Source: a virus
Lineage: Duplodnaviria; Heunggongvirae; Uroviricota; Caudoviricetes
Length of the DNA: 40,896 bases
IMG/VR virus record: IMGVR_UViG_2558309052_000002
Reading direction: 5' to 3' (one strand)
Part shown: positions 3,789-40,896 of the stretch, in pieces
How the letters are laid out: the number at the start of each line of letters is the position of its first letter
How positions within the stretch are numbered: position 1 is the stretch's first letter
Made by a program: the position numbers and the translations under genes
The notes under the pieces: generated by a model
What the model was told of the DNA's origin: nothing
The model's input: only the letters and a program-made list of their open reading frames with translations
Databases searched by the model: none

Positions 3789-5042
3789 CTATGCCGCCCT
3801 TACGATGTAATTAAACGCAATGTTACGGGGACGAATGGTCACATAATTAACCCCATCGCCTCGCGAAGGACCTGCAAATGAAAAACGGGAGAATCCAGGT
3901 TGGTTGTCAACGATTTGGTCATAGTTATTGATTGAATGACCAGACCCAATGTCAAAATTACCTGCGTAATGAGAAAAACTTGTACCATCCTGCCGTGAAA
4001 GCAGATCGCGCCCTGTATCCACTTTTCGCCCGTCGTCCCATCCACGGATAAACTCACCGCGTAAATCGGGAAGACGGAGGGTCGGGTAGACTCTGGCCAG
4101 AACAGGATATTGTTCTTTTGTAAAGGCGCGCCCGTCGCACTTTAACCAGCCTGCTGGCGGTGTGGCAGTGGGCCACGGAACAGGTACACCAACGGGCAGC
4201 GCCGAGCCTTCCCCCAAACCAAGGTAATTGAGGACATCTTTTATACTGCCCTTAGCGATAATAGCGCGACCAATAGCTGTAAGGGTTGCCAGCTCTGCGC
4301 GGTCTGCTCCGGTAAAATAAGGCAACCGATCTGCTGCAGTGGCAAGTCCTGCCAGAGCAGTGAGCGTGGCATCTGCCGGTTGTTTTCCGTTTGCCAGATC
4401 GTATGCAGCCTTGACCGCTTTCGGTGTGGCGGCCAGTATTTCAGACGTGCTGTTGATGGCACTGCTCAATTGTACGGTGCCTTTTGCCGTCAGCGAGGCA
4501 GCAGGCACTCCCGTTATCTGACTCCACGGGTGAGTGTGGCTGACGGGCGCCTTGCCGGCTGCAAGGTCGTATGCAGCCTTGACCGCCTTCGGCGTGGCAG
4601 CCTCAGTTTCTGATTGACTGTCCGTGGCGCTGCTCAGTTGTACGGTGCCTTTTGCCGTCAGTGAAGCCGCAGGCACTCCCGTTATCTGACTCCACGGGTG
4701 AGTGTGGCTGGCAGGCGCCTTGCCGGCTGCCAGGTCGTATGCAGCCTTGACCGCTTTTGGTGTGGCGGCCAGCGTTTCAGAGGTGCTGTTGGTGGCACTG
4801 CTCAGTTGGGTGAACCCCTTAGCTGTCAGTGTCGCGTCCGGGTGGTTACGGGAACGTACGTGTTCAGCCAGTGACTGTGCGGCTTCCTCCGTTTTCTTCT
4901 TCAGCCATTTCGTCCTGTTTGCCAGTTGCCGGGGGGCTCGATTTGATATCCCGTCTGCACCACCCAGAACCGGATCTGATGTCTCCAGTTGATAGATATT
5001 TTCTTCCCACTTTTCTGTTTCATTCAGGTTTCCCATAATCAA
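3789..5042 (-). CDS. tail fibre protein (constant N-terminal part fused to variable cassette C)
   Basis: 417 aa. ATGA overlap with the upstream gpI-like gene; internal 56-aa tail-fibre repeats; C-terminal 140 aa is homology block C plus a unique tip ending ...NIAFNYIVRAA. Confidence 0.9.
   Translation of the reverse strand: MIMGNLNETEKWEENIYQLETSDPVLGGADGISNRAPRQLANRTKWLKKKTEEAAQSLAEHVRSRNHPDATLTAKGFTQLSSATNSTSETLAATPKAVKAAYDLAAGKAPASHTHPWSQITGVPAASLTAKGTVQLSSATDSQSETEAATPKAVKAAYDLAAGKAPVSHTHPWSQITGVPAASLTAKGTVQLSSAINSTSEILAATPKAVKAAYDLANGKQPADATLTALAGLATAADRLPYFTGADRAELATLTAIGRAIIAKGSIKDVLNYLGLGEGSALPVGVPVPWPTATPPAGWLKCDGRAFTKEQYPVLARVYPTLRLPDLRGEFIRGWDDGRKVDTGRDLLSRQDGTSFSHYAGNFDIGSGHSINNYDQIVDNQPGFSRFSFAGPSRGDGVNYVTIRPRNIAFNYIVRAA
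4388..4829 (-). repeat. in-frame tandem repeats (168 bp, about 2.6 copies) inside the tail fibre gene
   Basis: Protein repeat LTAKG(F/T)(T/V)QLSSA.(N/D)S.SE..AATPKAVKAAYDLA.GKAP.SHTHPWSQITGVPAAS occurs twice in full and once in part. Shadow ORFs on + at 4393 and 4729 (336 nt apart) share ARSYAALTAFGVAAS. Confidence 0.85.
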
Positions 5043-5617: not shown

Positions 5618-6713
5618 CAGACACTCCAGTCATGTTAAGAGTGATTGCCGTACAGTTTGCCCATTCGTTTTCTGCCACCACCCGCAGTGCCGGTGTCACC
5701 AGTTCAACCTGGTACACCCCGGAAACGGACAATGCACTGATAATCTGGCTGGGGACAATATCGCGCCCCAGCGTGGCGGCACGTGATGCCACCCAGTTCT
5801 GTATGGCGCTGTTAGCGGCATCTTTTACAGACCTGGCATCCTGATCACGATAGATCGTAATCCTGGCTTCAATGGTGTAATCCACCTTCACTGGTGTTTT
5901 AGCCCGCACTGTATCAGTGAGTGGCCTGACTTTCTCATCAGAGCAGAAACTCTCTACCAGCGTGAGAACACCGCCGTCCGGCAGACCGGTACTGAGCAGC
6001 GGATACAGATCTACGGTCCCGGGAACCGGGGAAAGCACAGCAACATCGACAATGTTGGGATGGGCCTGCATGGCATGAAAGCGGTATGCGCCACGGCTTC
6101 CGGCATTGGTGAATGACTCCGGGGCCAGCCTGATACGCTCCCGGAGCCTGTCATCGTCTTCCTGTTCTGAACCGCCGGAACTGGCCATCAGATTGCTCAC
6201 CAGCAGGTTAACGTTATCAATCTCATCGAGTAACTGACTGACCTGCGCAGGTTGCCAGCCGTTACCAGCGGTACCGGGTTCGGTACAGGTGGCCGTGACA
6301 TTGACCAGCAGCAATCCGGCCTTCAGTACCACATCTGTATCGGTGGCAAAAATAACGCTGTCGGAAGCGCTGACGCGGGTGCCTGCCGGGATCAGCACAT
6401 CAATGGCCAGTGCCTCATCTACGGAGAACTGGAGCGTGGTGGTGGCAGGCTGCGCGGCAAGACGGTATACACCGACCAGTTCACCGAGGTAATCAATCAT
6501 CGGCTCACGGGCAAAGGCGACCAGATTCTGCTTTGCTGCCTCCTGTACCGCAACCCTGACCAGCATTTCGCGATAGGCCCACAGATCAATCAGCAGACGT
6601 TCTGCCTGTGCCGGGTACAGCGTTTTGCCGGTATCCGCTTCATACTTCGCAATCATTTCTGCCGTGATTTTGTCGGCATCGCGTTCAATAAAATCGGGTT
6701 CTGTCAGCGCCAT
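5610..6713 (-). CDS. baseplate protein J-like
   Basis: 367 aa; conserved position between gpW-like and gpI-like genes; overall resemblance to baseplate J family. Confidence 0.8.
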   Translation of the reverse strand: MALTEPDFIERDADKITAEMIAKYEADTGKTLYPAQAERLLIDLWAYREMLVRVAVQEAAKQNLVAFAREPMIDYLGELVGVYRLAAQPATTTLQFSVDEALAIDVLIPAGTRVSASDSVIFATDTDVVLKAGLLLVNVTATCTEPGTAGNGWQPAQVSQLLDEIDNVNLLVSNLMASSGGSEQEDDDRLRERIRLAPESFTNAGSRGAYRFHAMQAHPNIVDVAVLSPVPGTVDLYPLLSTGLPDGGVLTLVESFCSDEKVRPLTDTVRAKTPVKVDYTIEARITIYRDQDARSVKDAANSAIQNWVASRAATLGRDIVPSQIISALSVSGVYQVELVTPALRVVAENEWANCTAITLNMTGVSDD

Positions 6714-7051
6714 AGCAGCTCCTGAGTCCGGGTCTGTCCGTCTGAGCCTTTCCAGCTCACCCGGAGCGTAAGATGTTCGCCGTCGACGGCGGGTTTAACT
6801 GACATAAGCTGGCAGCGGGGCTCCCAGCGCCGGATGGCATCGACGGATTCGCGCACCACATGCGGAATGGCCCGGTCTACAGGCCAGTCGATATAAAGAT
6901 GCAGATTGCTGCCGAACTCCGGGCGATGCGGGTCGCTGCCGCGGGGAGTCCGCAGGATAATTTGAATCGCCTGCCGGATATCATCCAGCCCCCGGACAAT
7001 TTCGCCGGGAGCCTGCAGGGCTGGTTGCCAGAATACTGAGGTTGTTTTCAT
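6704..7051 (-). CDS. baseplate protein W-like (GPW/gp25 family)
   Basis: 115 aa, ...RGSDPHRPEFGSNLHLYIDWPVD... typical of the gpW/gp25 baseplate wedge family. Confidence 0.8.
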   Translation of the reverse strand: MKTTSVFWQPALQAPGEIVRGLDDIRQAIQIILRTPRGSDPHRPEFGSNLHLYIDWPVDRAIPHVVRESVDAIRRWEPRCQLMSVKPAVDGEHLTLRVSWKGSDGQTRTQELLWR

Positions 7052-7105
7052 GGGGGCAGTATTGCCCCCGTGCGGGAACGCTGATATTAAAGGCGTTTAA
7101 AAAGC

Positions 7106-9056: not shown

Positions 9057-9937
9057 ACACTCCTCGTCAGTATTCTGGCGGCCATTGCACTTAATCCCGG
9101 AGACATGCGGTTGAATGCTGTGCCGACGGCGTTAAGCTGCCCGGAAACGGTATCCAGAGCACCTGCAATATTTCTTTTGTCCACACCACTCAGCGCAGAC
9201 TGTGCCTGCTGTACATACGTGGCTGCTTCGCTGGCTGTTCTGGCCAGACTGATGGCATCGGGCATGGATTCAGAGAGTGCGTTAAACGCCGGAACACTTT
9301 TCCCCAGAGCCCCGGAGATATTACCCAGTCCGCTCATCAGCCCCGGCACACGGGTCAGTGCGACAACGGGGTTATCCTTCATTTTCTGTGTCACCCGAAC
9401 GGCGCTGATAGTGGTCTGGAGTACAGACTGCGCCTGTTTCGCATAGTTGACGCCGTTGCGGATGAACTGCGCCACCCCTGAAGGTGAAGGTATGGCACCG
9501 GAGACCGCCCCGACACCCGGGAGCTTCGTGCGTATTGCCGGTGGTTGCAGAGGATTTTTCGGGTCACCGGTGTATTCCCGGAGAGACACGGTGGCACTGA
9601 CAGCCAGCACGTTGCCGGTACTGTCAGTCTGCTCGCTGGTTGCAGTCACATCGGTGATCACGAACCAGCCGCGATAGTCACCGTTGCCGAAGACCAGCGC
9701 CAGTGCCTGATGGGCTTTCATGGCTGTTCGCAGTCTCGCCAGCTCCACATCGGGTACACAATAATGCTGATGGAAAACCAGAGTTATCTGGATTTCGTCC
9801 AGCCTGTCGCCGACGAACTGCAGACCAGGCTTACCCCCGATGCGGGCATGCTCCGCATAATCGACGCCGAACGTGGCCTCGAAGCCGTCCCAGTAGGTAA
9901 TCAGCTCAAACTCAATATCACCCAGTACGGCAAACAT
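9053..9937 (-). CDS. tail protein (P2 gpU-like / Mu gpN-like position)
   Basis: 294 aa directly downstream of the tape measure gene; assignment is by gene order only. Confidence 0.5.
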   Translation of the reverse strand: MFAVLGDIEFELITYWDGFEATFGVDYAEHARIGGKPGLQFVGDRLDEIQITLVFHQHYCVPDVELARLRTAMKAHQALALVFGNGDYRGWFVITDVTATSEQTDSTGNVLAVSATVSLREYTGDPKNPLQPPAIRTKLPGVGAVSGAIPSPSGVAQFIRNGVNYAKQAQSVLQTTISAVRVTQKMKDNPVVALTRVPGLMSGLGNISGALGKSVPAFNALSESMPDAISLARTASEAATYVQQAQSALSGVDKRNIAGALDTVSGQLNAVGTAFNRMSPGLSAMAARILTRSV

Positions 9938-12888
9938 CAGCGGTACTCCTTACGTTGTTTCTGAGCCAGCAGACGCTCCAGCATTTTTTCCAGCTCATGC
10001 AGACTCATATTCAGGGCACCAGTCAGTCCTGCAGGCGCTGTGGTTTCCCTGCCATTGAGGAAAAACTGAGGATTAAAGCTGACCTGGATACCACCAGACG
10101 TTCCACCGCCGGTTGCAGCTGCACCACGGCCTGAATATCCGGCAGCCAGGATTTCAGGCGAGGGGATACGGGGAACATCCGGTGTCATCTCATTTGCCAG
10201 ACGTTGCCCTGGTAAAATCGATGCCCGGGTGGAGAGCGGAATAGCGGGCATGGAAGACAAACTATTGATTACGGCTCCGATCGCATTTTTAGCAGACGAC
10301 ATAAACCCATTGATATCGGGCAACGGCATACTGAAGCGAACACCTGAAGTGTTATCCCGTATTTCTGGCCCCTGAATGCTCACGGGCATTCTGGGGAGCA
10401 GTTCACTGGCCATTCGCTGCCCGGCCAGAGCTGCAAGCGGAGTGGTCCGCTGCAGGCCAATGGCGGCCCCCTGCGCGATATTGTCACCAAAGCCCATAAA
10501 CACGCGGCTCGGCGAATGAATGCCCAGCTTTTCGCTGAACCAGCCACTGATGCTGTCGCCCATTCCGGTTACACTGGATTTGAGCGACTCCCATTTGTTT
10601 TTGATACCGTTAATCAGACCATCGACAAGATGGCCACCGAAGTCGGTAAACTTTGCCGGCAGATCAACACCAAGATATTTCAGCGCAGCTGCAAAGGCTT
10701 TATAGAGCAGACCTGCCGGCGACCAGTTAATCAGCAGCTTACCAGTTCCCGCGATACCGCCGTTAAAGGCTTCCTGAATGTCAGCCCAGCATTGTTTAAA
10801 CCAGCTACTGATGCTGTCACCCATTCCGGTTACACTGGATTTGAGCGACCCCCATTTGTTTTTGATACCGTTAATCAAACCGTCGATAAGATGGCCACCG
10901 AAGTCGGTGAACTTTGCCGGCAGAGTAACGCCGAAATATTTCAGCGCAGCCGCAAAGGCTTTATAGAGCAGGCCTGCCGGCGACCAGTTAATCAGCAGCT
11001 TACCAGTTCCCGCGATACCGCCGTTAAAGGCTTCCTGAATGTCAGCCCAGCGCTGTTTAAACCAGCCACTGACTGCCCCCCAGTTGCGGTAGATAAGGTA
11101 AGCTGCTGCCGCGACAGCGGTGATAACGAGACCGATGGGATTCATCATCAGCGCTCGCCCAATCCAGAGAACGGCACGTGCAGCGCTCATAAAACCGCGA
11201 ACGAGGCTGCCCGCCAGAACTTTGCTGAGTTTCAGTCCTCCGCTGGTCAGTCGGCTGAATCCAGTGACAAGCCAGCGTAATTTGCCACCTTCTCCGAGTG
11301 CGGTAGTCAGTCGATGCCAGTTGGTCCGGAGTAAAACAGCAGTTTTCCAGACGTTCACAAAGGGGGAAATAAGGAGATTCAGCCCCAGTTTGAGACCAAC
11401 AGTCGCTATCTTAATCGCAAGGAGCGCACTGATGAGCTTAAAAGCCCCACTGACAAATTGCGGGTGAGTCGCCACCCAGTGTTTTGTCCCCTGAATGAGT
11501 GGGAGCAAGTCCTGAGTCAGAGAAATAAAAGATGGAGCTAATTGATCGCCCAGCGTAATTGCCAGATCGCGACTGCTGACCATAAGTGTTTTAGTGGCTT
11601 CAAGGGGAGATTTCAGCCGCTGATCATAAGCACTGGCAAGCAAATCGTTATCCGCAGCCCTGAGAGCACCGGCACGGATCTCTCGATATCTGTCCATGTT
11701 GGCCAGCATCGGGCGGATAAATGCCATGACCTGCATATCCGCGAACATATCGCCCAGACCAAAGTTTTTCGCCAGAGCCTGAAGTGCCTCATCTCTTGCC
11801 GTATCATTCTTTATTTTCATGGCTGATTTGAAGCCGGCCAGCGCTTCGGGGCTTTTGGCATTGAGGTAACGTTCTATAACACTCAACATCCCTTCAATCG
11901 GAGAGATCCCCGCAGCTTTATAACTCGCAATAGATCCCTGCAAATCAATACCCAGATCAGCAAACTGTTTCTGAGTATCGCGGGCAAAAATTTTGGTAAG
12001 AAAGTTTTTAAAATTATTGGCTGCTTCGTCGGTGGAACCTGCACCGATTTTTGCTATCTGGAGACTGGCCCCGATTTCAGCAACAGCCTCTTTTCCACTG
12101 GCAATACCCGCCATCATTGGGGCCAGGGACTGCATCCACTTGACCTGATCCGGGATTTCAAATGACCCCTGGTCACCGGCATAAGCCATAATATTCTGAA
12201 CGGCACCAAAATCTCTGGCCGCGCCTTTCAGGGAGTTTTGCCAGACTGCGGCCACTTTTGCCCAGTCCTGAGCAGACGTGCGTGTTGCCGTTGCCGCGCG
12301 GGCAATATCCGGCATCAGAAAACCGATATCTGACACATTATCAATATTGTCGCTGATGAGTGAACCCATCGCCTCCTGCAGCTCATCCTGATACTGATTG
12401 TATTTAAGCGCCCAGCCTTTTATCTGTCCGGCAAGTGCATCCCGCGTTTTATTGTCATATTTTGCGGTGATCGACATATCAATCATTTTGTCCTGAAAAG
12501 ACATGGACTGCTGAACGGCAGGGGAAACCGTATGATAAACAGTCTGTGCCATGCCATACGCTTCAATCCCCTGACCATACAGCGCCATGCGGTTAGCTTT
12601 CAGCGCATCACTGGTAGCGGATGCCGCTGACAGACGGCGCTGCTGGCGCTCAATTTGCTCCATGGTGCGGCTTACCCGCAGCAGCTCGCTGTTGAGATGC
12701 TGCATCCGGGAAGAACCCAGTTGACCATAACGTTCTGTTGCACGGGTTAAAGCGTTCTGACGTTCCTGCAGGCGGCGTGAGGTATCGCTCAGGGAATCAA
12801 GCGCACGGCGGGTACCGCTCATTGCAGAACGGAATGTGCTGCCAATCATCCCGCCGATAACAACGCCGACTGAAAACTGTCCCGACAT
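9937..12888 (-). CDS. tail tape measure protein
   Basis: 983 aa, alpha-helical and Gly/Ala-rich, downstream of the frameshifted tail chaperone; RBS GGAGG before the ATG at 12888; contains an internal 86-aa tandem duplication. Confidence 0.9.
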   Translation of the reverse strand: MSGQFSVGVVIGGMIGSTFRSAMSGTRRALDSLSDTSRRLQERQNALTRATERYGQLGSSRMQHLNSELLRVSRTMEQIERQQRRLSAASATSDALKANRMALYGQGIEAYGMAQTVYHTVSPAVQQSMSFQDKMIDMSITAKYDNKTRDALAGQIKGWALKYNQYQDELQEAMGSLISDNIDNVSDIGFLMPDIARAATATRTSAQDWAKVAAVWQNSLKGAARDFGAVQNIMAYAGDQGSFEIPDQVKWMQSLAPMMAGIASGKEAVAEIGASLQIAKIGAGSTDEAANNFKNFLTKIFARDTQKQFADLGIDLQGSIASYKAAGISPIEGMLSVIERYLNAKSPEALAGFKSAMKIKNDTARDEALQALAKNFGLGDMFADMQVMAFIRPMLANMDRYREIRAGALRAADNDLLASAYDQRLKSPLEATKTLMVSSRDLAITLGDQLAPSFISLTQDLLPLIQGTKHWVATHPQFVSGAFKLISALLAIKIATVGLKLGLNLLISPFVNVWKTAVLLRTNWHRLTTALGEGGKLRWLVTGFSRLTSGGLKLSKVLAGSLVRGFMSAARAVLWIGRALMMNPIGLVITAVAAAAYLIYRNWGAVSGWFKQRWADIQEAFNGGIAGTGKLLINWSPAGLLYKAFAAALKYFGVTLPAKFTDFGGHLIDGLINGIKNKWGSLKSSVTGMGDSISSWFKQCWADIQEAFNGGIAGTGKLLINWSPAGLLYKAFAAALKYLGVDLPAKFTDFGGHLVDGLINGIKNKWESLKSSVTGMGDSISGWFSEKLGIHSPSRVFMGFGDNIAQGAAIGLQRTTPLAALAGQRMASELLPRMPVSIQGPEIRDNTSGVRFSMPLPDINGFMSSAKNAIGAVINSLSSMPAIPLSTRASILPGQRLANEMTPDVPRIPSPEILAAGYSGRGAAATGGGTSGGIQVSFNPQFFLNGRETTAPAGLTGALNMSLHELEKMLERLLAQKQRKEYR
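10538..11053 (-). repeat. 258-bp perfect-frame tandem duplication inside the tape measure gene
   Basis: Two consecutive near-identical 258-bp units (10538-10795, 10796-11053) plus the start of a third. Protein shows WADIQEAFNGGIAGTGKLLINWSPAGLLYKAFAAALKY...GIKNKW.SLKSSVTGMGDSIS twice; near-identical shadow ORFs on + at 10520 and 10778. Confidence 0.9.
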
Positions 12889-12963
12889 AGTGGTTAACCT
12901 CCGGGGAAGGTGAAAAGACGTGAGGGGATAACGCAGAACAGCCGCTACTGGCGGCTGTCTGTA

Positions 12964-13381
12964 CTATGATTTGTCGCCGTACTCGCTTTTGATTTGCTCT
13001 TCAGCCTGCTCCAGCCACATCTCCAGATCGTCAGTATCGAGGGCATCAATCTCCCCCGGCTGAAACCGGAACCATCTCGCCAGCAGCCCCTGCGCCTGCG
13101 TCAGCGCCCTGGTTGCTCTCACCCATCCCCGTGATGAGCTGAAATCGTTTCTGTAACTGCAGGTAATCAGCCAGATCCATATTGTCGAGATCCTCCGGGA
13201 GAAGACCAGTACTGCGGGCAATCAGCGGTTCGTCCCAGTCTGCCGGGTTTTTGCTGATTTTGCGCACCTGCTTCAGGTCTTTTACCGTCAGGCGTTTCAG
13301 TTCAACCAGCTCAATTCTGGTGCCTGCAGCAGTGGTGAAGGGATAAGACAATTTAAAAGTATCGGATGGGGTCTGTGACAT
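12964..13381 (-). CDS. tail assembly chaperone, frameshift-extended form
   Basis: A second frame (stop at 12964) overlaps the 3' end of the chaperone ORF in a +1/-2 relationship. A G5 run (13053-13057) lies 5 nt before the zero-frame stop. Predicted fusion ...MVPVSAG/EIDALDTDDLEMWLEQAEEQIKSEYGDKS. Confidence 0.55.
13046..13381 (-). CDS. tail assembly chaperone (P2 gpE-like / Mu gp41-like)
   Basis: 111 aa, acidic C-terminal region; RBS AGGAG before the ATG at 13381; immediately upstream of the tape measure gene. Confidence 0.75.
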   Translation of the reverse strand: MSQTPSDTFKLSYPFTTAAGTRIELVELKRLTVKDLKQVRKISKNPADWDEPLIARSTGLLPEDLDNMDLADYLQLQKRFQLITGMGESNQGADAGAGAAGEMVPVSAGGD

Positions 13382-13402
13382 GATTGTGCTCCTGTGTAAG
13401 TT

Positions 13403-13442
13403 CAGGGCAGTATGTCGGGAGAAGCGCGTGACGGATATTAAA
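13403..13442 (-). promoter_or_regulatory. late-promoter-like motif (copy 3), upstream of the tail chaperone and tape measure genes
   Basis: TTTAATATC-N23-CTGCCCTG on the minus strand, same spacing as the two better copies at 19323-19361 and 26787-26825; preceded by a C-rich tract. Confidence 0.4.
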
Positions 13443-13471
13443 GGAGATTAAGAAGAAGGGGCCGGAGCCCC
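13440..13471 (-). terminator. putative intrinsic terminator after the small ORF in the tail operon
   Basis: Minus-strand hairpin GGGGC-TCCG-GCCCC followed by TTCTTCTTAATCTCCTTT, directly after the stop of ORF 13479-13760. Confidence 0.5.
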
Positions 13472-13478
13472 TGTGATG

Positions 13479-13760
13479 TCAGCAAGTGCGAAACCCCTTG
13501 CAGTTACGCAGGAAAGCGATGAGAAGCGTCTTTCCCTCAGATTTGCCGATGCCGGAGAACCAGTGGTCGGGAGGCTCCCATGCTTCAATCAAATCCGCCA
13601 GTTTGCGGGCCTTTGAACGTGTGCAGTCAATCGGGTCATTGGTTTTACGGGTATTAAAAAGGGTTTCCACCCCCGGAATATCAAGGAGGGTAAACCACGT
13701 ACCATTTGACATGCCCAGTGCCGCACATCGTCCTCCTTTATCCGTCAGTTCAACACTCAC
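13479..13760 (-). CDS. hypothetical protein (possible moron between tail tube and tail chaperone genes)
   Basis: 93-aa ORF (MSVELTDKGGRCAALGMSNGTWFTLLDIPGVETLFN...) with no family I recognise; followed by its own terminator-like hairpin; no counterpart at this position in canonical Mu or P2 gene order. Confidence 0.45.
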   Translation of the reverse strand: MSVELTDKGGRCAALGMSNGTWFTLLDIPGVETLFNTRKTNDPIDCTRSKARKLADLIEAWEPPDHWFSGIGKSEGKTLLIAFLRNCKGFRTC

Positions 13761-13762
13761 CG

Positions 13763-14284
13763 TCAGCCCCCGATATTGATACGGTAGTCAGTCAGTTGAT
13801 CAACACCGCCGACCCGGAAGATGTTGGCCAGATAGTCCAGTTGCAGCAGCTCTTCACCATCCAGTACCTGTCTGATATACGTGCAGGTGAAGCTACTGGA
13901 GAACTCGGCGTTCTCGTGCTGTTTGAACGTCCCCAGCGGGTTCTTCTTGAACATAATCGTCAGGAAGGTGACCAGCGGGATTTCGTCAATCAGCCCCTGC
14001 GAGCTGTAGCGCTGGACGCTGGAACGACACTGCAGTGCCAGCGACCTGTACGGGTTCGCGGCAGACAGCATCGCATCGCGGTAAAAGCTGTTCCATTTGA
14101 TTTCGCCTTCCAGTTTGTCAAAACCAGCCGGGAGTTCCACCTTACCCACCATCCCCAGCGCCTTGTGTTCCTGCATAATCATGGAGACATCGGGGAGTTT
14201 AACTTCCTCAGCCCGTCCCAGCAGGTTAGTACCATCCAGATAGATGTTGGCATTCGTGATGCGGTTTATCTCAATCTTTGACAT
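13763..14284 (-). CDS. tail tube protein (Mu M / P2 FII-like)
   Basis: 173 aa directly downstream of the sheath gene, start overlapping the sheath stop. Confidence 0.85.
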   Translation of the reverse strand: MSKIEINRITNANIYLDGTNLLGRAEEVKLPDVSMIMQEHKALGMVGKVELPAGFDKLEGEIKWNSFYRDAMLSAANPYRSLALQCRSSVQRYSSQGLIDEIPLVTFLTIMFKKNPLGTFKQHENAEFSSSFTCTYIRQVLDGEELLQLDYLANIFRVGGVDQLTDYRINIGG

Positions 14285-15711
14285 CAGTTGCCCCCTTTCA
14301 GGGTTAACAGGTATTCCGAGGTGATCTCAGTCTCAAACGTCAGTCGCTCCAGCGGCGGTGGTGGCGTATATTTGTAGCTCAGCAACAGGTGCCCGGCGGC
14401 CAGCTCCGTCTCCGGATTGCGGGCCGGATCAAACCAGCAACGGAAGCCCAGTACCGCACCATCACCAGTCATTTTGCGACCGTAGGCGTTGACCGACTCC
14501 GTCAGTGCATCAATCAGCGCCTGAGTAATCGGCATGTCGATGTACTGCTGGCTGAAATAACGAATGGACTCGTTGATCACATCACCGGTGCGGCGAACGT
14601 TCTCAAAGTTACGCATATGGGTGACCGTTGGCCATGCTGCCGTCCGGTTACCCCACAGACGAAGGCCGCTGCCGTAACTGCTGAATACCGTGGTGATCCC
14701 CTGTTCGTTAAGCAGGTTCACCTCACTCTGCGGGTCATCAATCATCGCGGACAGCTGGCGCTCCACGCCGGTGATCCCCAGAATCTCCTGATTGGAGGAT
14801 GACCACCAGTAGCCCTTGTCCAGATCGACTCTGGCACGCAGACCTGCTGCACGCTGGCTGAGCGGCTCCAGACGCTCTGTGTTTGTCACCGGGTCATATA
14901 CCTTCACATGCGGATAGCACAGACGGACGCGGTCGGAGCTGGTATTGAAGTTGATGGTGCCTTCCGGGCCACGACCTGCCAGAGCCTGTGCAAAGGTGGT
15001 ACCGACAGGCGCATCAATGTAGGTTACCGCGCCCAGCTTCTCTGCCATGGCGATAAGCTCAACTGCGACACTCTTCTGGGTGCAGAACACCGGCGCAATC
15101 AGAATTTTGGCGAAATAGCCGTACAGGTTGAAGCTGTCGTTAAGCAGCTTCATGCCGGTTCGGTTTCCGGCGCTGTTCACCCCGCCGATGATGTCCGCCG
15201 CAGTCACCTTCGACGGGTCCGCGTACTCATAGCTCACCTTCACGCTGCCACCGGCCTCAATAGCCTTGCCCAGGTTCGTGAGCACACCCGCCTGCGCATC
15301 AACACGGTAGTCCGTGTTCGCCGTGTGGGTGGTGCTGCCTTCACTGTTTTTCACCACCACATTAGCGACAACCGGATGCGCCAGTCTGGCCTGCCCTGTC
15401 GATTTGTCAAAGGTAACCACCTCATCCTCGATCGCCGTTTTATGTTTCGCCGGGTCGAGGACGTTAATGACCAGAACGGTGCCTGCACCATGGTCATAAA
15501 TCGCATCCAGCGCCTGCGGAATGGTAAAGCCGGTGAACTGGCTGCCAAATGCCGCTGCGTCTTTCTCAGACAGGCACTGTACCAGCGTATTGACATCCCC
15601 CATCGGGGCGGTACCAATCAGGCCAATAACGGCAGATTTCACCGTTTTAACCGGGCGGGCACCGTTTTCCACCTCAATGGTTTCGGGACCATGCAGATAG
15701 TTAGCTGCCAT
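14284..15711 (-). CDS. contractile tail sheath protein (Mu L / P2 FI-like)
   Basis: 475 aa; characteristic size and sequence character of sheath proteins; followed by the tube gene. Confidence 0.9.
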   Translation of the reverse strand: MAANYLHGPETIEVENGARPVKTVKSAVIGLIGTAPMGDVNTLVQCLSEKDAAAFGSQFTGFTIPQALDAIYDHGAGTVLVINVLDPAKHKTAIEDEVVTFDKSTGQARLAHPVVANVVVKNSEGSTTHTANTDYRVDAQAGVLTNLGKAIEAGGSVKVSYEYADPSKVTAADIIGGVNSAGNRTGMKLLNDSFNLYGYFAKILIAPVFCTQKSVAVELIAMAEKLGAVTYIDAPVGTTFAQALAGRGPEGTINFNTSSDRVRLCYPHVKVYDPVTNTERLEPLSQRAAGLRARVDLDKGYWWSSSNQEILGITGVERQLSAMIDDPQSEVNLLNEQGITTVFSSYGSGLRLWGNRTAAWPTVTHMRNFENVRRTGDVINESIRYFSQQYIDMPITQALIDALTESVNAYGRKMTGDGAVLGFRCWFDPARNPETELAAGHLLLSYKYTPPPPLERLTFETEITSEYLLTLKGGN

Positions 15712-19322: not shown

Positions 19323-19361
19323 GACAGTTTGTGAGAAATGCAGGCCCGGCGATTTTAATCT
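19323..19361 (-). promoter_or_regulatory. late-promoter-like motif (copy 2), upstream of the protease/scaffold gene
   Basis: ATTAAAATC-N23-CTGTCTCC on the minus strand inside the 214-bp gap between the gpG-like and protease genes; preceded by TCCCC and CTAAA tracts. Position corresponds to Mu P-I. Confidence 0.55.
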
Positions 19362-19509
19362 GCTTTAGAAAACATCAGGGGAGAAGGACAGGGAAAGCAA
19401 TGCGGTGAACCGGAGGCGGTTATAAAACAGAGGCTGTAAAGCCTTTATAAAGGTAATACAGCCCCTCATTCGCTGGCAATGATAAATCACCCGCCTGAAG
19501 AGAGAAAAC

Positions 19510-19968
19510 TCAGCGACGGGCCGCTGATTCAAGATGGCGGACAATGGTATCGAGGATGGGGATTACCACTTCAGGCTGTAGTTCTCCATCCCCCGTCACC
19601 GGCAGGAACGGGCGGGCCGGAAGTTCAACAGACTCATTACGCCCCGTTTTACCCCCGAACTGGTGAATGGCACCGTAAACAACGTTGGTCCCCACAACAG
19701 CCTGCCGGTCGTCATGGTCGGTTGATACTGACCCCATCAGACGCCCGGTATCCTGCAGTGTCTGCCCGTCACGTTCTTCCGCTGCCAGCGAGGGCATCCA
19801 CCCCGGACGCCCCTCATCAAGAAAGTTAAACTGTGTTTCCGCCAGCAGGGTTCCGGCGATTTTGCGCATCGCGGGCTCCAGGTCTGTGGCAGCAAGATCC
19901 AGCGCACGGAGGCTCCGGCGCAGGGACTTATCGTTAATGGTGATACTGACCAGGTTATCGGAAGCCAT
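19510..19968 (-). CDS. virion morphogenesis protein (Mu G-like)
   Basis: 152 aa; located between the F-like and I-like genes as in Mu. Confidence 0.75.
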   Translation of the reverse strand: MASDNLVSITINDKSLRRSLRALDLAATDLEPAMRKIAGTLLAETQFNFLDEGRPGWMPSLAAEERDGQTLQDTGRLMGSVSTDHDDRQAVVGTNVVYGAIHQFGGKTGRNESVELPARPFLPVTGDGELQPEVVIPILDTIVRHLESAARR

Positions 19969-26416: not shown

Positions 26417-26767
26417 TTAAAGCCCCATCGCAACAGCCAGGCAGACCGCTGCAACAATCAGTGCACGGCGGATTAACGCAGCAGAAAACACCAGGTGAAG
26501 GCCGGTCTGTACCGGGAAACGCCCTTCAGCCATCAGCCTGTCGTCATGTTTCAGGTACTGACCGGGACGGGCTTTGGGGAAGAGCGAACGGTCAAGCCAG
26601 TAACCCAGCACTGCTGCCAGCGTGATGAGTGCCAGCTTGTAGATCACAACAGGCAGCTGCTGTGGTGAGACCAGAGCGATGGTGCCCAGCAACAGCACTG
26701 AGGTCAGCAGCCAGCCGCTGAGGCGAGGTTTTTTAACAGGGGGAATGAATTTTTTCAGGTTTTTCAT
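26417..26767 (-). CDS. putative holin (three predicted TM helices)
   Basis: From the ATG at 26767 (RBS AAGGAG): MKNLKKFIPPVKKPRLSGWLLTSVLLLGTIALV... with three hydrophobic segments; first gene of the lysis cassette. Confidence 0.6.
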   Translation of the reverse strand: MKNLKKFIPPVKKPRLSGWLLTSVLLLGTIALVSPQQLPVVIYKLALITLAAVLGYWLDRSLFPKARPGQYLKHDDRLMAEGRFPVQTGLHLVFSAALIRRALIVAAVCLAVAMGL

Positions 26768-26786
26768 GTGTGTCTCCTTATCTGGT

Positions 26787-26825
26787 GGAGACAGCATCAC
26801 AAATACAGGGCGCGAAGGATTTTAA
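26787..26825 (-). promoter_or_regulatory. late-promoter-like motif (copy 1), upstream of the lysis cassette
   Basis: TTTAAAATC-N23-CTGTCTCC on the minus strand, 19 nt upstream of the holin ATG; C-rich tract upstream; the CTGTCTCC box can pair with the RBS region (GGAGACA). Confidence 0.55.
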
Positions 26826-26962
26826 AGCGCGTTAAGAGAGCCGGGGATACGGGATGTGCAGGATAAACGATGAATTATTCACAGAGGAGAATACGATATG
26901 ACGCAGACACTGAATCCGGTCATCACTGTCACCGTGTCCGGTCCTGTGGGCAGCGGTAAAAG

Positions 26963-40085: not shown

Positions 40086-40535
40086 ATGCAGAAAAAACGC
40101 CTGATACAGCTTATCCATATTGCCCGTAATGAACTGGGTATGGATGAAGACACCTACCGCCAGATGTTACAGGGGCTGACCGGTAAAGCCTCAACCAAAG
40201 GAATGGATACCACACAACTAAACTGCGTGCTGGAATCCATGAAAAAGAAAGGCTTTCGCGTTAAACCAGCCAGAAAAGCCAGCTCCGGTTTACCGCTTGA
40301 TAACCATCCGCAGTCCAGGAAAATTCGTGCGCTATGGCTTGAAATGGCTGCTGCCGGCATTGTTCGTGACCGTTCAGAAAATGCATTAGCGAGGTGGATC
40401 AAGCGGGAAACGGGCATCAGCGCCCTGCGCTGGCTCAGTACTGAACAGGCAAGCAGTGTTATTGAGAAACTGAAGAAGTGGCAGCGCAGAGCTGCGGGAG
40501 TCAAACATGAGCGACCTGAATCAGTTTCGAAGTAA
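40086..40535 (+). CDS. GemA-like protein (Mu gp16 family)
   Basis: 149 aa, MQKKRLIQLIHIARNELGMDEDTYRQMLQGLTGKAS...; immediately upstream of the Mor-family gene, as gemA precedes mor in Mu. Confidence 0.6.
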   Translation: MQKKRLIQLIHIARNELGMDEDTYRQMLQGLTGKASTKGMDTTQLNCVLESMKKKGFRVKPARKASSGLPLDNHPQSRKIRALWLEMAAAGIVRDRSENALARWIKRETGISALRWLSTEQASSVIEKLKKWQRRAAGVKHERPESVSK

Positions 40536-40896
40536 GGGGCCGGAACTCCTGGTGGAACTGGCACAGCATACCTCTGAGACCGTTCGCGAGATTATTGATA
40601 TTGAGCCCGAAGTTGCCGACCAGATTGGTCAGGCCGTCGCGAACCGAATGATGCAGGTCTGGGGCGGGCAAAACGTTTATTTCCCGATGGGCATGGTATG
40701 GAAGGTCAGTCAGCGCGACCGGGAAATCTTCAGGGAGTTTAACGGACGCAACCACCACGAACTGGCCCGCAAATTTGGTGTTTCGCTTCAGTGGGTCTAC
40801 AGCGTGGTTAAGCGGGTAAGAAAAGAAGAACTGGATCGGATGCAGGGCAAGCTATTTGCTGATGAACCCGATGCAGATACGGAGAAAAAAGAGTAA
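40507..40896 (+). CDS. mor: Mor/C-family transcription activator
   Basis: 129 aa; core ...WGGQNVYFPMG...SQRDREIFREFNGRNHHELARKFGVSLQWVYSVVKRVRK... matches the Mor/C activator family (HTH at C-terminus). Stop codon is the last triplet of the window. Confidence 0.8.
   Translation: MSDLNQFRSKGPELLVELAQHTSETVREIIDIEPEVADQIGQAVANRMMQVWGGQNVYFPMGMVWKVSQRDREIFREFNGRNHHELARKFGVSLQWVYSVVKRVRKEELDRMQGKLFADEPDADTEKKE

Follow-up and report, generated by a model that had tools for sequence, protein, structure and literature searches.

A conserved DUF7739-family gene in a variable slot between the tail tube and tail chaperone genes of enterobacterial BcepMu-like prophages

The locus and its prophage

The IMG/VR virus record IMGVR_UViG_2558309052_000002 is a stretch of 40,896 nucleotides (nt) of DNA from a member of the Caudoviricetes, referred to here as the window, with positions counted from its first letter. 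Bases 1-1284 encode aroA (named after the matching RefSeq annotation), while the remainder of the window is occupied by a transposable prophage that is Mu-like and of the BcepMu type. On the minus strand of its tail region, an open reading frame (ORF) encoding a protein of 93 amino acids (aa) is situated between the genes of the tail tube and the tail assembly chaperone E (Table 1). A previous reading, made from the sequence alone, had described this ORF, a GC-rich hairpin with a U-rich tract following it and a copy of a late-promoter motif following the hairpin. All three were found to be present, with the hairpin and its tract covering 13447-13472 and the tract being interrupted. The same sequence-only reading had interpreted the arrangement as a self-contained inserted cassette (a moron) with its own terminator, whose product may serve the lysogen rather than the virion. 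The analysis described below indicates that the ORF is a real gene and probably a non-virion accessory (cargo) gene, which has long been resident in a variable slot at the 3' end of one late transcription unit in enterobacterial prophages of the BcepMu type.

The tail junction of the window (12900-14400, 1.5 kb) was found to be 100% identical to that of Escherichia phage PhiKM, which is classified in Bcepmuvirus. Furthermore, among 5426 complete E. coli genomes, 407 were found to contain the first 25 kb of the window at a coverage of at least 80%, with several of these strains belonging to sequence type 131 (ST131).

Selection on the 93-aa ORF

The ORF begins with a GTG codon, preceded by a weak Shine-Dalgarno sequence and located 2 nt past the stop codon of the tube gene (TGA CG GTG). 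This start is supported by the N-terminal sequence MSVxLxDK, which is kept throughout the family to which the protein belongs, and by orthologues that possess an ATG at the position of the GTG. Comparison of 46 distinct orthologous sequences (958 pairs, mean synonymous divergence (dS) of 0.72) gave a median ratio of non-synonymous to synonymous divergence (dN/dS) of 0.094, with the corresponding medians being 0.022 for the tube gene and 0.186 for chaperone E. This value shows the ORF to be a protein-coding gene under purifying selection, and an absence of selection, which the sequence-only reading had named, together with an absence of transcription, as a finding that would speak against its proposal, was not observed.

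Protein family and genomic contexts

The sequence-only reading had recognised no family for the 93-aa protein and had recommended profile and structure-based homology searches. The former gave a match to PHROG 1239, a group of unknown function, with an E-value of 4.7e-48, in which residues 1-93 are aligned to the whole of the profile (positions 1-96 of 96), while the latter provided no significant match (Foldseek, see below). The Pfam family DUF7739 was matched at 24.7 bits (E = 3.5e-5), which is under its gathering cut-off of 27 bits; near-identical cluster representatives of the protein (P0001, P0002) are recorded as PF24881. The gene product gp22 of phage Sf6 scored 69.4 bits on DUF7739 and was found to align with the window protein along its full length, with a tblastn search of the window protein against Sf6 gene 22 giving an E-value of 3e-14. 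The ORF is a conserved hypothetical accessory gene whose family (DUF7739, PHROG 1239) is catalogued but of unknown function.

Identity of the window protein to Sf6 gene 22, HK75 gp27 and a homologue of phage EPP-1 was 42-54%. The homology to Sf6 gene 22 and HK75 gp27 (42-47%) is full-length, the proteins being of the same size and consisting of a single domain, and the motifs TWF, W-x-PP-x-x-W and C-x-GF-R are common to them and the window protein. A joint alignment of the family over its full length possessed seven invariant columns (T21, W22, P64, F83, C87, G89 and F90). Only 81 members were identified when 1.84 billion cluster representatives were searched with a profile, and nearly all of these are single-domain proteins of about 90-100 aa.

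Members of the family were identified in three genomic contexts. Among the phage collection, the first of these is the tube/chaperone slot of phages PhiKM, KP12 and Phi06_2974, with identities of 84-99%. The second, found in lambdoid and P22-like phages (Sf6 gene 22, HK75 gp27 and CUS-3), is the accessory region in the distal part of the early-left (pL) operon, where neighbours include abc2, DUF2737, Ea22-like and Lar-like genes; the EPP-1 homologue is likewise located in an early region. The third is formed by phages of approximately 92-100 kb, namely ECML-606-1, vB_EcoM-813R1, phiT5282EW and fHe-Yen8-01, and, according to the record of Sf6, gene 22 has a similar counterpart on the Salmonella plasmid pHCM2. 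As the family is common to a podovirus (Sf6), siphoviruses (HK75 among them) and myoviruses and is found in early operons, it is not a part of the contractile tail. The presence of homologues in the early accessory regions of unrelated phages also makes a non-virion accessory role reasonable, and on this point the sequence-only reading is supported.

Two distant representatives of the family were located on short contigs with small unannotated ORFs only, and their context was uninformative. Examination of the literature on DUF7739, phrog_1239, hkaH, fHe-Yen8-01 and Bcepmuvirus/PhiKM found nothing relevant.

Occupancy of the tube/chaperone slot

The junction between the tube and chaperone genes was compared across relatives, as the sequence-only reading had advised, and the content of the slot was found to vary from no gene to a single gene, a pair of genes or an unrelated gene. 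Among 80 viral contigs with a tube protein at least 91% identical to that of the window, a DUF7739 gene was present in the slot of 71. It stood alone in 60 contigs, was accompanied by a gene of the PF13876 family in ten and carried a 42-codon in-frame deletion in one. Eight contigs had an empty slot, the tube gene and E being separated by 90-131 nt, and in the remaining contig (L082) the slot was occupied by an unrelated 66-aa ORF.

Neither Mu nor P2 possesses a gene in this slot, as had been stated, with gaps of 9 nt (M to gp41) and 56 nt (FII to E), respectively. The slot is also without a gene in BcepMu and phiE255 (gap of 121 nt), whose tube is 67% identical to that of the window, and in a Salmonella prophage of the STM4212 type, in which a gap of 51 nt contains a hairpin. 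The absence of the gene from Mu, P2, BcepMu and phiE255 identifies the 93-aa ORF as an addition; together with the polymorphism of the slot, this upholds the description of it as an extra gene.

In a collection in which each species is represented by a single genome, 23 loci of the family were found, of which 19 are situated in the tube/E slot, the genera including Pseudocitrobacter, Mixta, Intestinirhabdus, Limnobaculum, Trabulsiella, Pantoea, Erwinia, Serratia, Symbiopectobacterium, Buttiauxella and Photorhabdus. Identity of the ORF across genera was 67-87%, lying between the values of sheath and tube and those of E and the tape measure, which is as expected for co-divergence with the tail module. 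These comparisons of sequence indicate that the 93-aa gene is neither a recent nor a sporadic insertion but a long resident of the slot that is occasionally lost. Empty junctions, the in-frame deletion and remnants in Photorhabdus show that the gene is dispensable in some lineages. In four species of the latter genus (L111-L114, approximately 6001-6200), only a remnant of DUF7739 is present (residues of about 24-92 or 45-91), with the 5' truncation being confirmed by reading of the sequence in L111 only; with both hairpin and promoter still intact, decay of the gene in that lineage is suggested.

The second cargo gene of the slot lies between the tube and DUF7739 genes and encodes a 97-aa protein of the N4 gp49/Sf6 gene 66 family (PF13876), so both cargo genes have homologues in Sf6. 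It was identified in loci L033, L038, L041, L045, L050, L054, L055, L060, L062 and L070, and also in L094, L097, L099 and L104, at approximately 4520-4810 where the tube match covers 4001-4519 (offset in the shorter L038, L054 and L055). The ORF that replaces DUF7739 in L082 (4530-4730, beginning with MSEKIVVNAEQIKALAEF) had no Pfam hit, and this junction possesses a hairpin sequence of its own.

The hairpin and late-promoter motif following the ORF

The hairpin was found to be the strongest minus-strand terminator-like site in the region of 3-22 kb, with a folding energy of -12.8 kcal/mol (z = -2.25). On the basis of its sequence, it is the probable intrinsic terminator, possibly a partial one, of the late unit of head, sheath and tube. 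The sequence-only reading had considered a terminator in the middle of a tail operon to be unexpected; for this group of phages, however, it is normal. A stable hairpin was identified in 45 of 46 distinct junction sequences, empty junctions included, and at least seven different stem and loop sequences were found among them, with examples being GGGGC-TTCG-GCCCC, GGGGGCC-GCAA-GGCTCCC, GGGAGC-CTTACC-GCTCCC and GGGGCC-TGGT-GGCCCC. The structure is thereby conserved while the sequence is not. Better T tracts exist among relatives, with a run of six (T6) in L068, L082 and BcepMu, and the gap of BcepMu and phiE255 holds a textbook terminator, GGCCCGC-ttcg-GCGGGCC followed by T6.

At empty junctions, the stop codon of the tube gene is followed directly by the hairpin and then by the promoter motif in unchanged geometry, and hairpin and motif are present in BcepMu as well. 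The presence of hairpin and promoter at junctions that have no gene, along with the terminator of BcepMu, identifies these elements as a backbone boundary of the phage between two late transcription units. Judging from these alignments, the cargo is inserted between the stop codon of the tube gene and this boundary.

The motif after the hairpin, TTAA-N6-TTAA-TAT-N20-CATACT, was identified at four positions of the window (Table 1), all on the minus strand, intergenic and in front of late genes, and in a relaxed form the motif reads T(T/A)AA-N6-TTAA-(T/A)AT-N20-nA(T/A)(A/G)CT, the copy at 19.3 kb having CTAA as its first half-site. No copies are expected in shuffled sequences, a statistic that is only indicative as the pattern was defined post hoc from these sites. 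Both geometry and sequence of the motif are conserved in the 46 distinct junction sequences, in relatives with or without the ORF. The motif is a putative late promoter, in which a dyad activator site centred at approximately -42.5 would be combined with a -10-like hexamer (13414-13409 in the copy next to the ORF).

Table 1. Features of the tail junction and of the predicted late transcription system of the window
Feature	Position	Strand	Remarks
Sheath gene	14284-15711	-	
Tail tube gene (P2 FII type)	13763-14284	-	Pfam Phage_tube, E = 2.9e-53
93-aa accessory gene	13479-13760	-	GTG start at 13760, TGA stop at 13479-13481
Stem-loop AGGGGC-UCCG-GCCCCU	13472-13457	-	Six pairs (five GC), UCCG loop
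T-rich tail TCTTCTTAAT	13447-13456	-	Overlaps the first half-site of the promoter motif
Motif TTAA-N6-TTAA-TAT-N20-CATACT	13409-13451	-	Exact; before the chaperone E/tape-measure unit
Tail assembly chaperone E	13046-13381	-	Pfam Phage_TAC_7, E = 5.5e-21; first gene of the next late unit
Chaperone frameshift frame, overlapping E	12964-13221	-	PHROG 8286 match
Tape measure gene	9937-12888	-	
Motif copy, exact	7058-7100	-	Before gp25-like baseplate gene (6704-7051)
Motif copy, one mismatch (CTAA first half-site)	19326-19368	-	Before 371-aa gene following G-like morphogenesis gene
Motif copy, exact	26793-26835	-	Before holin gene (26417-26800)
Mor/C-family late transcription activator	40507-40896	+	Pfam Mor (PF08765), E = 1.3e-43

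Proposed late transcription of the ORF

The gene at the end of the window for an activator of the Mor/C family is annotated in PhiKM as the positive regulator of late transcription C, and its product is the likely reader of the late motif. The copies of the motif would divide the late region into units for lysis, for head, sheath and tube, for chaperone and tape measure, and for baseplate and fibres. Genes from 19295 down to 13479 are packed with intergenic gaps that are all at most about 15 nt, which would make the 93-aa ORF the last cistron of a unit starting near 19.3 kb; transcription of this unit, which would end after the ORF, probably starts at the copy of the motif located there. Two terminator-like hairpins (19527-19510 and 19444-19431, minus strand) were also observed after the G-like morphogenesis gene, upstream of the 19.3-kb copy. 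The layout of a terminator followed by a promoter is thereby repeated at 19431-19527, where there is no cargo gene.

In the proposed course of events, the activator would fire the four late promoters that share the motif in the form TTAA-N6-TTAA-WAT-N20-nAWRCT, and the unit from approximately 19.3 kb would run through the head genes, the sheath and the tube. The 93-aa ORF would be read late in the lytic cycle from the sheath/tube mRNA, with its translation probably coupled to that of the tube, given that its GTG lies 2 nt past the stop codon of the latter. The transcript would end, at least in part, at the backbone hairpin, which may also stabilise its 3' end, and the promoter at 13451-13409 would restart transcription for chaperone E, the tape measure and genes downstream, such that the level of chaperone and tape-measure expression would be set separately. 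From this layout, the ORF is most likely to be co-transcribed late with sheath and tube and not to be expressed in the lysogen.

Predicted structure and function of the product

The 93-aa protein was modelled with AlphaFold with a predicted local distance difference test score (pLDDT) of 88.6 and a predicted template modelling score (pTM) of 0.80. The product is predicted to be a soluble, mildly basic alpha/beta protein of 10 kDa that lacks a membrane segment. Comparison of the model with PDB and BFVD using Foldseek identified nothing at an E-value below 1e-3 and nothing annotated. The predicted fold weakly resembles those of the small protein-binding proteins DMP12 (3w1o) and the CdiI immunity protein of B. 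pseudomallei E479 (5j4a_D); these and YfbM (1ryl) have 6-14% sequence identity to the window protein. DMP12 is an acidic DNA mimic. The DUF7739 family, by contrast, is mildly basic (median isoelectric point of 8.4), and a role as a DMP12-like DNA mimic was rejected on the grounds of charge.

Due to the small soluble fold and the accessory-region neighbours of its relatives (abc2, Lar-like and Ea22-like genes), it may be conjectured that the product would bind another macromolecule in the infected cell, acting as a counter-defence or host-takeover factor and not as a tail component. Binding or inhibition of a component of the host or its defences is our best guess for its function, but it is the least secure element of this account and is put forward tentatively, as a possibility that we would hold to be somewhat doubtful. 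A wider proposal is more speculative still. DUF7739 proteins may be small phage inhibitors with an immunity-protein-like fold that would neutralise a defence or another factor of the host and move between three niches, namely early-left regions of lambdoid and P22-like phages, phage-plasmids of about 95 kb and, in Mu-like prophages, the position after the last structural gene of a late transcript. Were this inhibitor reading true, the tube/chaperone boundary of enterobacterial BcepMu-like prophages would be a previously unrecognised hotspot for small cargo.

Alternative explanations for the ORF

A number of observations weigh against the ORF being a late-expressed accessory gene whose product acts on the infected cell. 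NCBIfam and PADLOC scans of the 93-aa protein returned no match, PDB sequences searched by profile yielded nothing beyond a chance match (E = 0.93), and the family differs in charge from DMP12, as mentioned above. The tail of the hairpin (UCUUCUUAAU) contains an interrupted U-tract, so termination may be weak, and the hairpin could instead chiefly stabilise the 3' end of the mRNA. Exclusively late expression is a prediction from the gene layout. In complete E. coli genomes, the ORF was identified in 639, the same number as for the tube gene at a nucleotide identity of at least 80% (a further 185 genomes have a tube that is only 60-80% identical), and this near-fixation is also compatible with a role in the late programme of the phage itself. 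Finally, gene 123 of fHe-Yen8-01 (L085 5001-5309), a distant DUF7739-like gene with 39% identity, is annotated as 'particle associated protein'.

The last two of these points would suit a lineage-specific virion or assembly factor that aids assembly of the tube or sheath, or that is packaged and delivered with the DNA, as would the location of the ORF directly after the tube gene with probable translational coupling, its presence in most of the related contigs and the purifying selection upon it. However, BcepMu and phiE255 possess a related tube but no such gene, and the eight empty junctions adjoin tubes that are at least 91% identical to that of the window, in addition to the in-frame deletion and the Photorhabdus remnants. 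Homologues exist in early operons of phages with non-contractile tails, and the match of the 93-aa protein to a tail-chaperone PHROG was insignificant (E = 0.41). The label of fHe-Yen8-01 gene 123 is shared by an adjoining DNA methyltransferase and a giant ADP-ribosyltransferase toxin and may reflect loose proteomics; a Pfam scan of the neighbours of this homologue found no useful domains. A tail protein would be expected to be present with every homologous tail module and to be confined to such modules, and DUF7739 is neither. A virion or assembly factor is therefore regarded as an unlikely explanation.

The moron interpretation of the sequence-only reading holds that the ORF is a self-contained unit with its own terminator and that the lysogen profits from its expression in the repressed prophage, in the manner of HK97 gene 15. 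Morons have been described as obvious additions of deviant GC content with their own promoter and terminator that are expressed from a repressed prophage, with the founding example, HK97 gene 15, being situated between the tail chaperone and tape-measure genes (PMC3594210). The ORF of the window is similar to the latter in being a small extra gene in a tail cluster, beside the chaperone gene, which has no counterpart in related phages, and the polymorphism of the slot is also in keeping with a moron. Furthermore, all junctions that bear the ORF share a hairpin of the form GGGG(C/T)-NNNG-GCCCC, with a stem of GGGGC except in L075 (a G-U pair in place of a G-C pair), while empty junctions possess other stems, such that the hairpin could have travelled with the gene. 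This was rejected, as members of the family in other phages do not carry the hairpin (Sf6 gene 21 begins 2 nt past the end of gene 22) and the empty junctions and BcepMu have hairpins of their own.

Other properties expected of a moron were not found. No sigma-70-like promoter was identified on either strand of 12800-14400 (by consensus scan only), the start codon abuts the stop codon of the tube gene, and the hairpin and late promoter belong to the phage backbone. The GC content of the ORF is 0.521, in comparison with 0.564 +/- 0.035 for 282-nt windows of the late region, and thus within 1.2 standard deviations; its GC content at third codon positions (GC3) of 0.543 is similar to that of chaperone E and the tape-measure gene. 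Across genera, divergence of the gene has kept pace with that of the tail module, and its product is predicted to be soluble, unlike typical exclusion morons and unlike gp15 of HK97, which is an inner-membrane protein. Of the proposed cassette, the extra DNA stands and the self-contained character does not, and a moron serving the lysogen is considered to be very improbable.

Finally, the idea of a chance ORF or decaying pseudogene that has no function, for which the GTG start and weak Shine-Dalgarno sequence, the truncated copies in some lineages and an antisense ORF of similar length (13486-13779, plus strand) might be cited, is refuted by the dN/dS ratio, by the confidently predicted fold and by the full-length conservation of the family across three contexts, with the antisense ORF being a by-product of the coding one.

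Comparison with other phage systems

The Mu late units are transcribed from the promoters Plys, PI, PP and Pmom, which are activated by C (PMC4461284). The prophage of the window is similar to Mu in encoding an activator of the Mor/C family, in having several late promoters in which a common activator site would precede a poor -35 region, and in the location of putative late promoters before units for lysis, head and baseplate. It differs from Mu in the additional promoter and hairpin between the tube and chaperone genes, as the genes of Mu at this point are only 9 nt apart. The site sequence TTAA-N6-TTAA was derived here from the copies of the window itself and is a prediction only.

While Sf6 gene 22 and HK75 gp27 lie in the early-left accessory region, the window gene would be the last cistron of a late structural transcript. 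A parallel exists among Mu-like Pseudomonas phages, in which anti-CRISPR (Acr) loci were reportedly found by Bondy-Denomy et al. in 2013 to be inserted between G and the protease/scaffold genes. In both cases, small accessory genes are located at the boundary of a late gene block of a transposable phage and vary among close relatives. The Acr loci, however, possess their own promoter and an aca regulator, and they have no sequence similarity or detected similarity of fold to the 93-aa protein. The Tai/Ati tail-assembly-interference genes, which are found upstream of the packaging module (PMC11364771), were also considered as relatives and rejected due to their different location and to phi80 not being among the 21 tblastn hits of the 93-aa protein.

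These results show that a hairpin and promoter beside a small ORF of unknown function need not signal a mobile cassette; here they constitute the punctuation of the phage between late units. They also define a late-promoter motif and a predicted late plan of four units for a prophage present in approximately 12% of complete E. coli genomes. DUF7739 emerges as an accessory family under strong constraint that is found in three phage contexts unrelated to one another, and on this basis it could reasonably be included in screens for anti-defence or host-takeover functions. The findings do not point to a new kind of system.

Additional observations

In fHe-Yen8-01, the block containing gene 123, the DNA methyltransferase and the ADP-ribosyltransferase toxin may represent a set of virion-packaged proteins.

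In the Pantoea stewartii locus (L099, 6326-7511), a stretch of 1.4 kb with opposite-strand ORFs of 319 aa and 72 aa was identified between the DUF7739 gene and chaperone E. By its appearance it resembles an insertion sequence, and if this is the case E would be split from its late promoter. Two further loci of enterobacterial prophage DNA were found in actinobacterial assemblies, on an 8.2-kb contig of Arthrobacter sp. GMC3 (L093), whose tube gene is 100% identical to that of the window, and on a 6-kb contig of Micromonospora sp. (L110). Contamination of the assemblies is the most likely source of both.

A stable hairpin, CAGCCGC-CAGUA-GCGGCUG (12935-12961, minus strand), was identified in the interval that separates the frameshift frame of the chaperone from the tape-measure gene. 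The 61-nt segment around it (12915-12975) has a folding energy of -18.3 kcal/mol (z = -3.5) and no good U-tract, and the hairpin may be an attenuator or an RNA-stability element ahead of the tape-measure gene. The latter gene was found to contain an in-frame tandem duplication of 261 bp (10538-11072, 2.0 copies, 93% matching), which would add 87 residues to the tape measure. The record of PhiKM has a sequencing gap in its tape-measure gene, for which this repeat is a possible cause.

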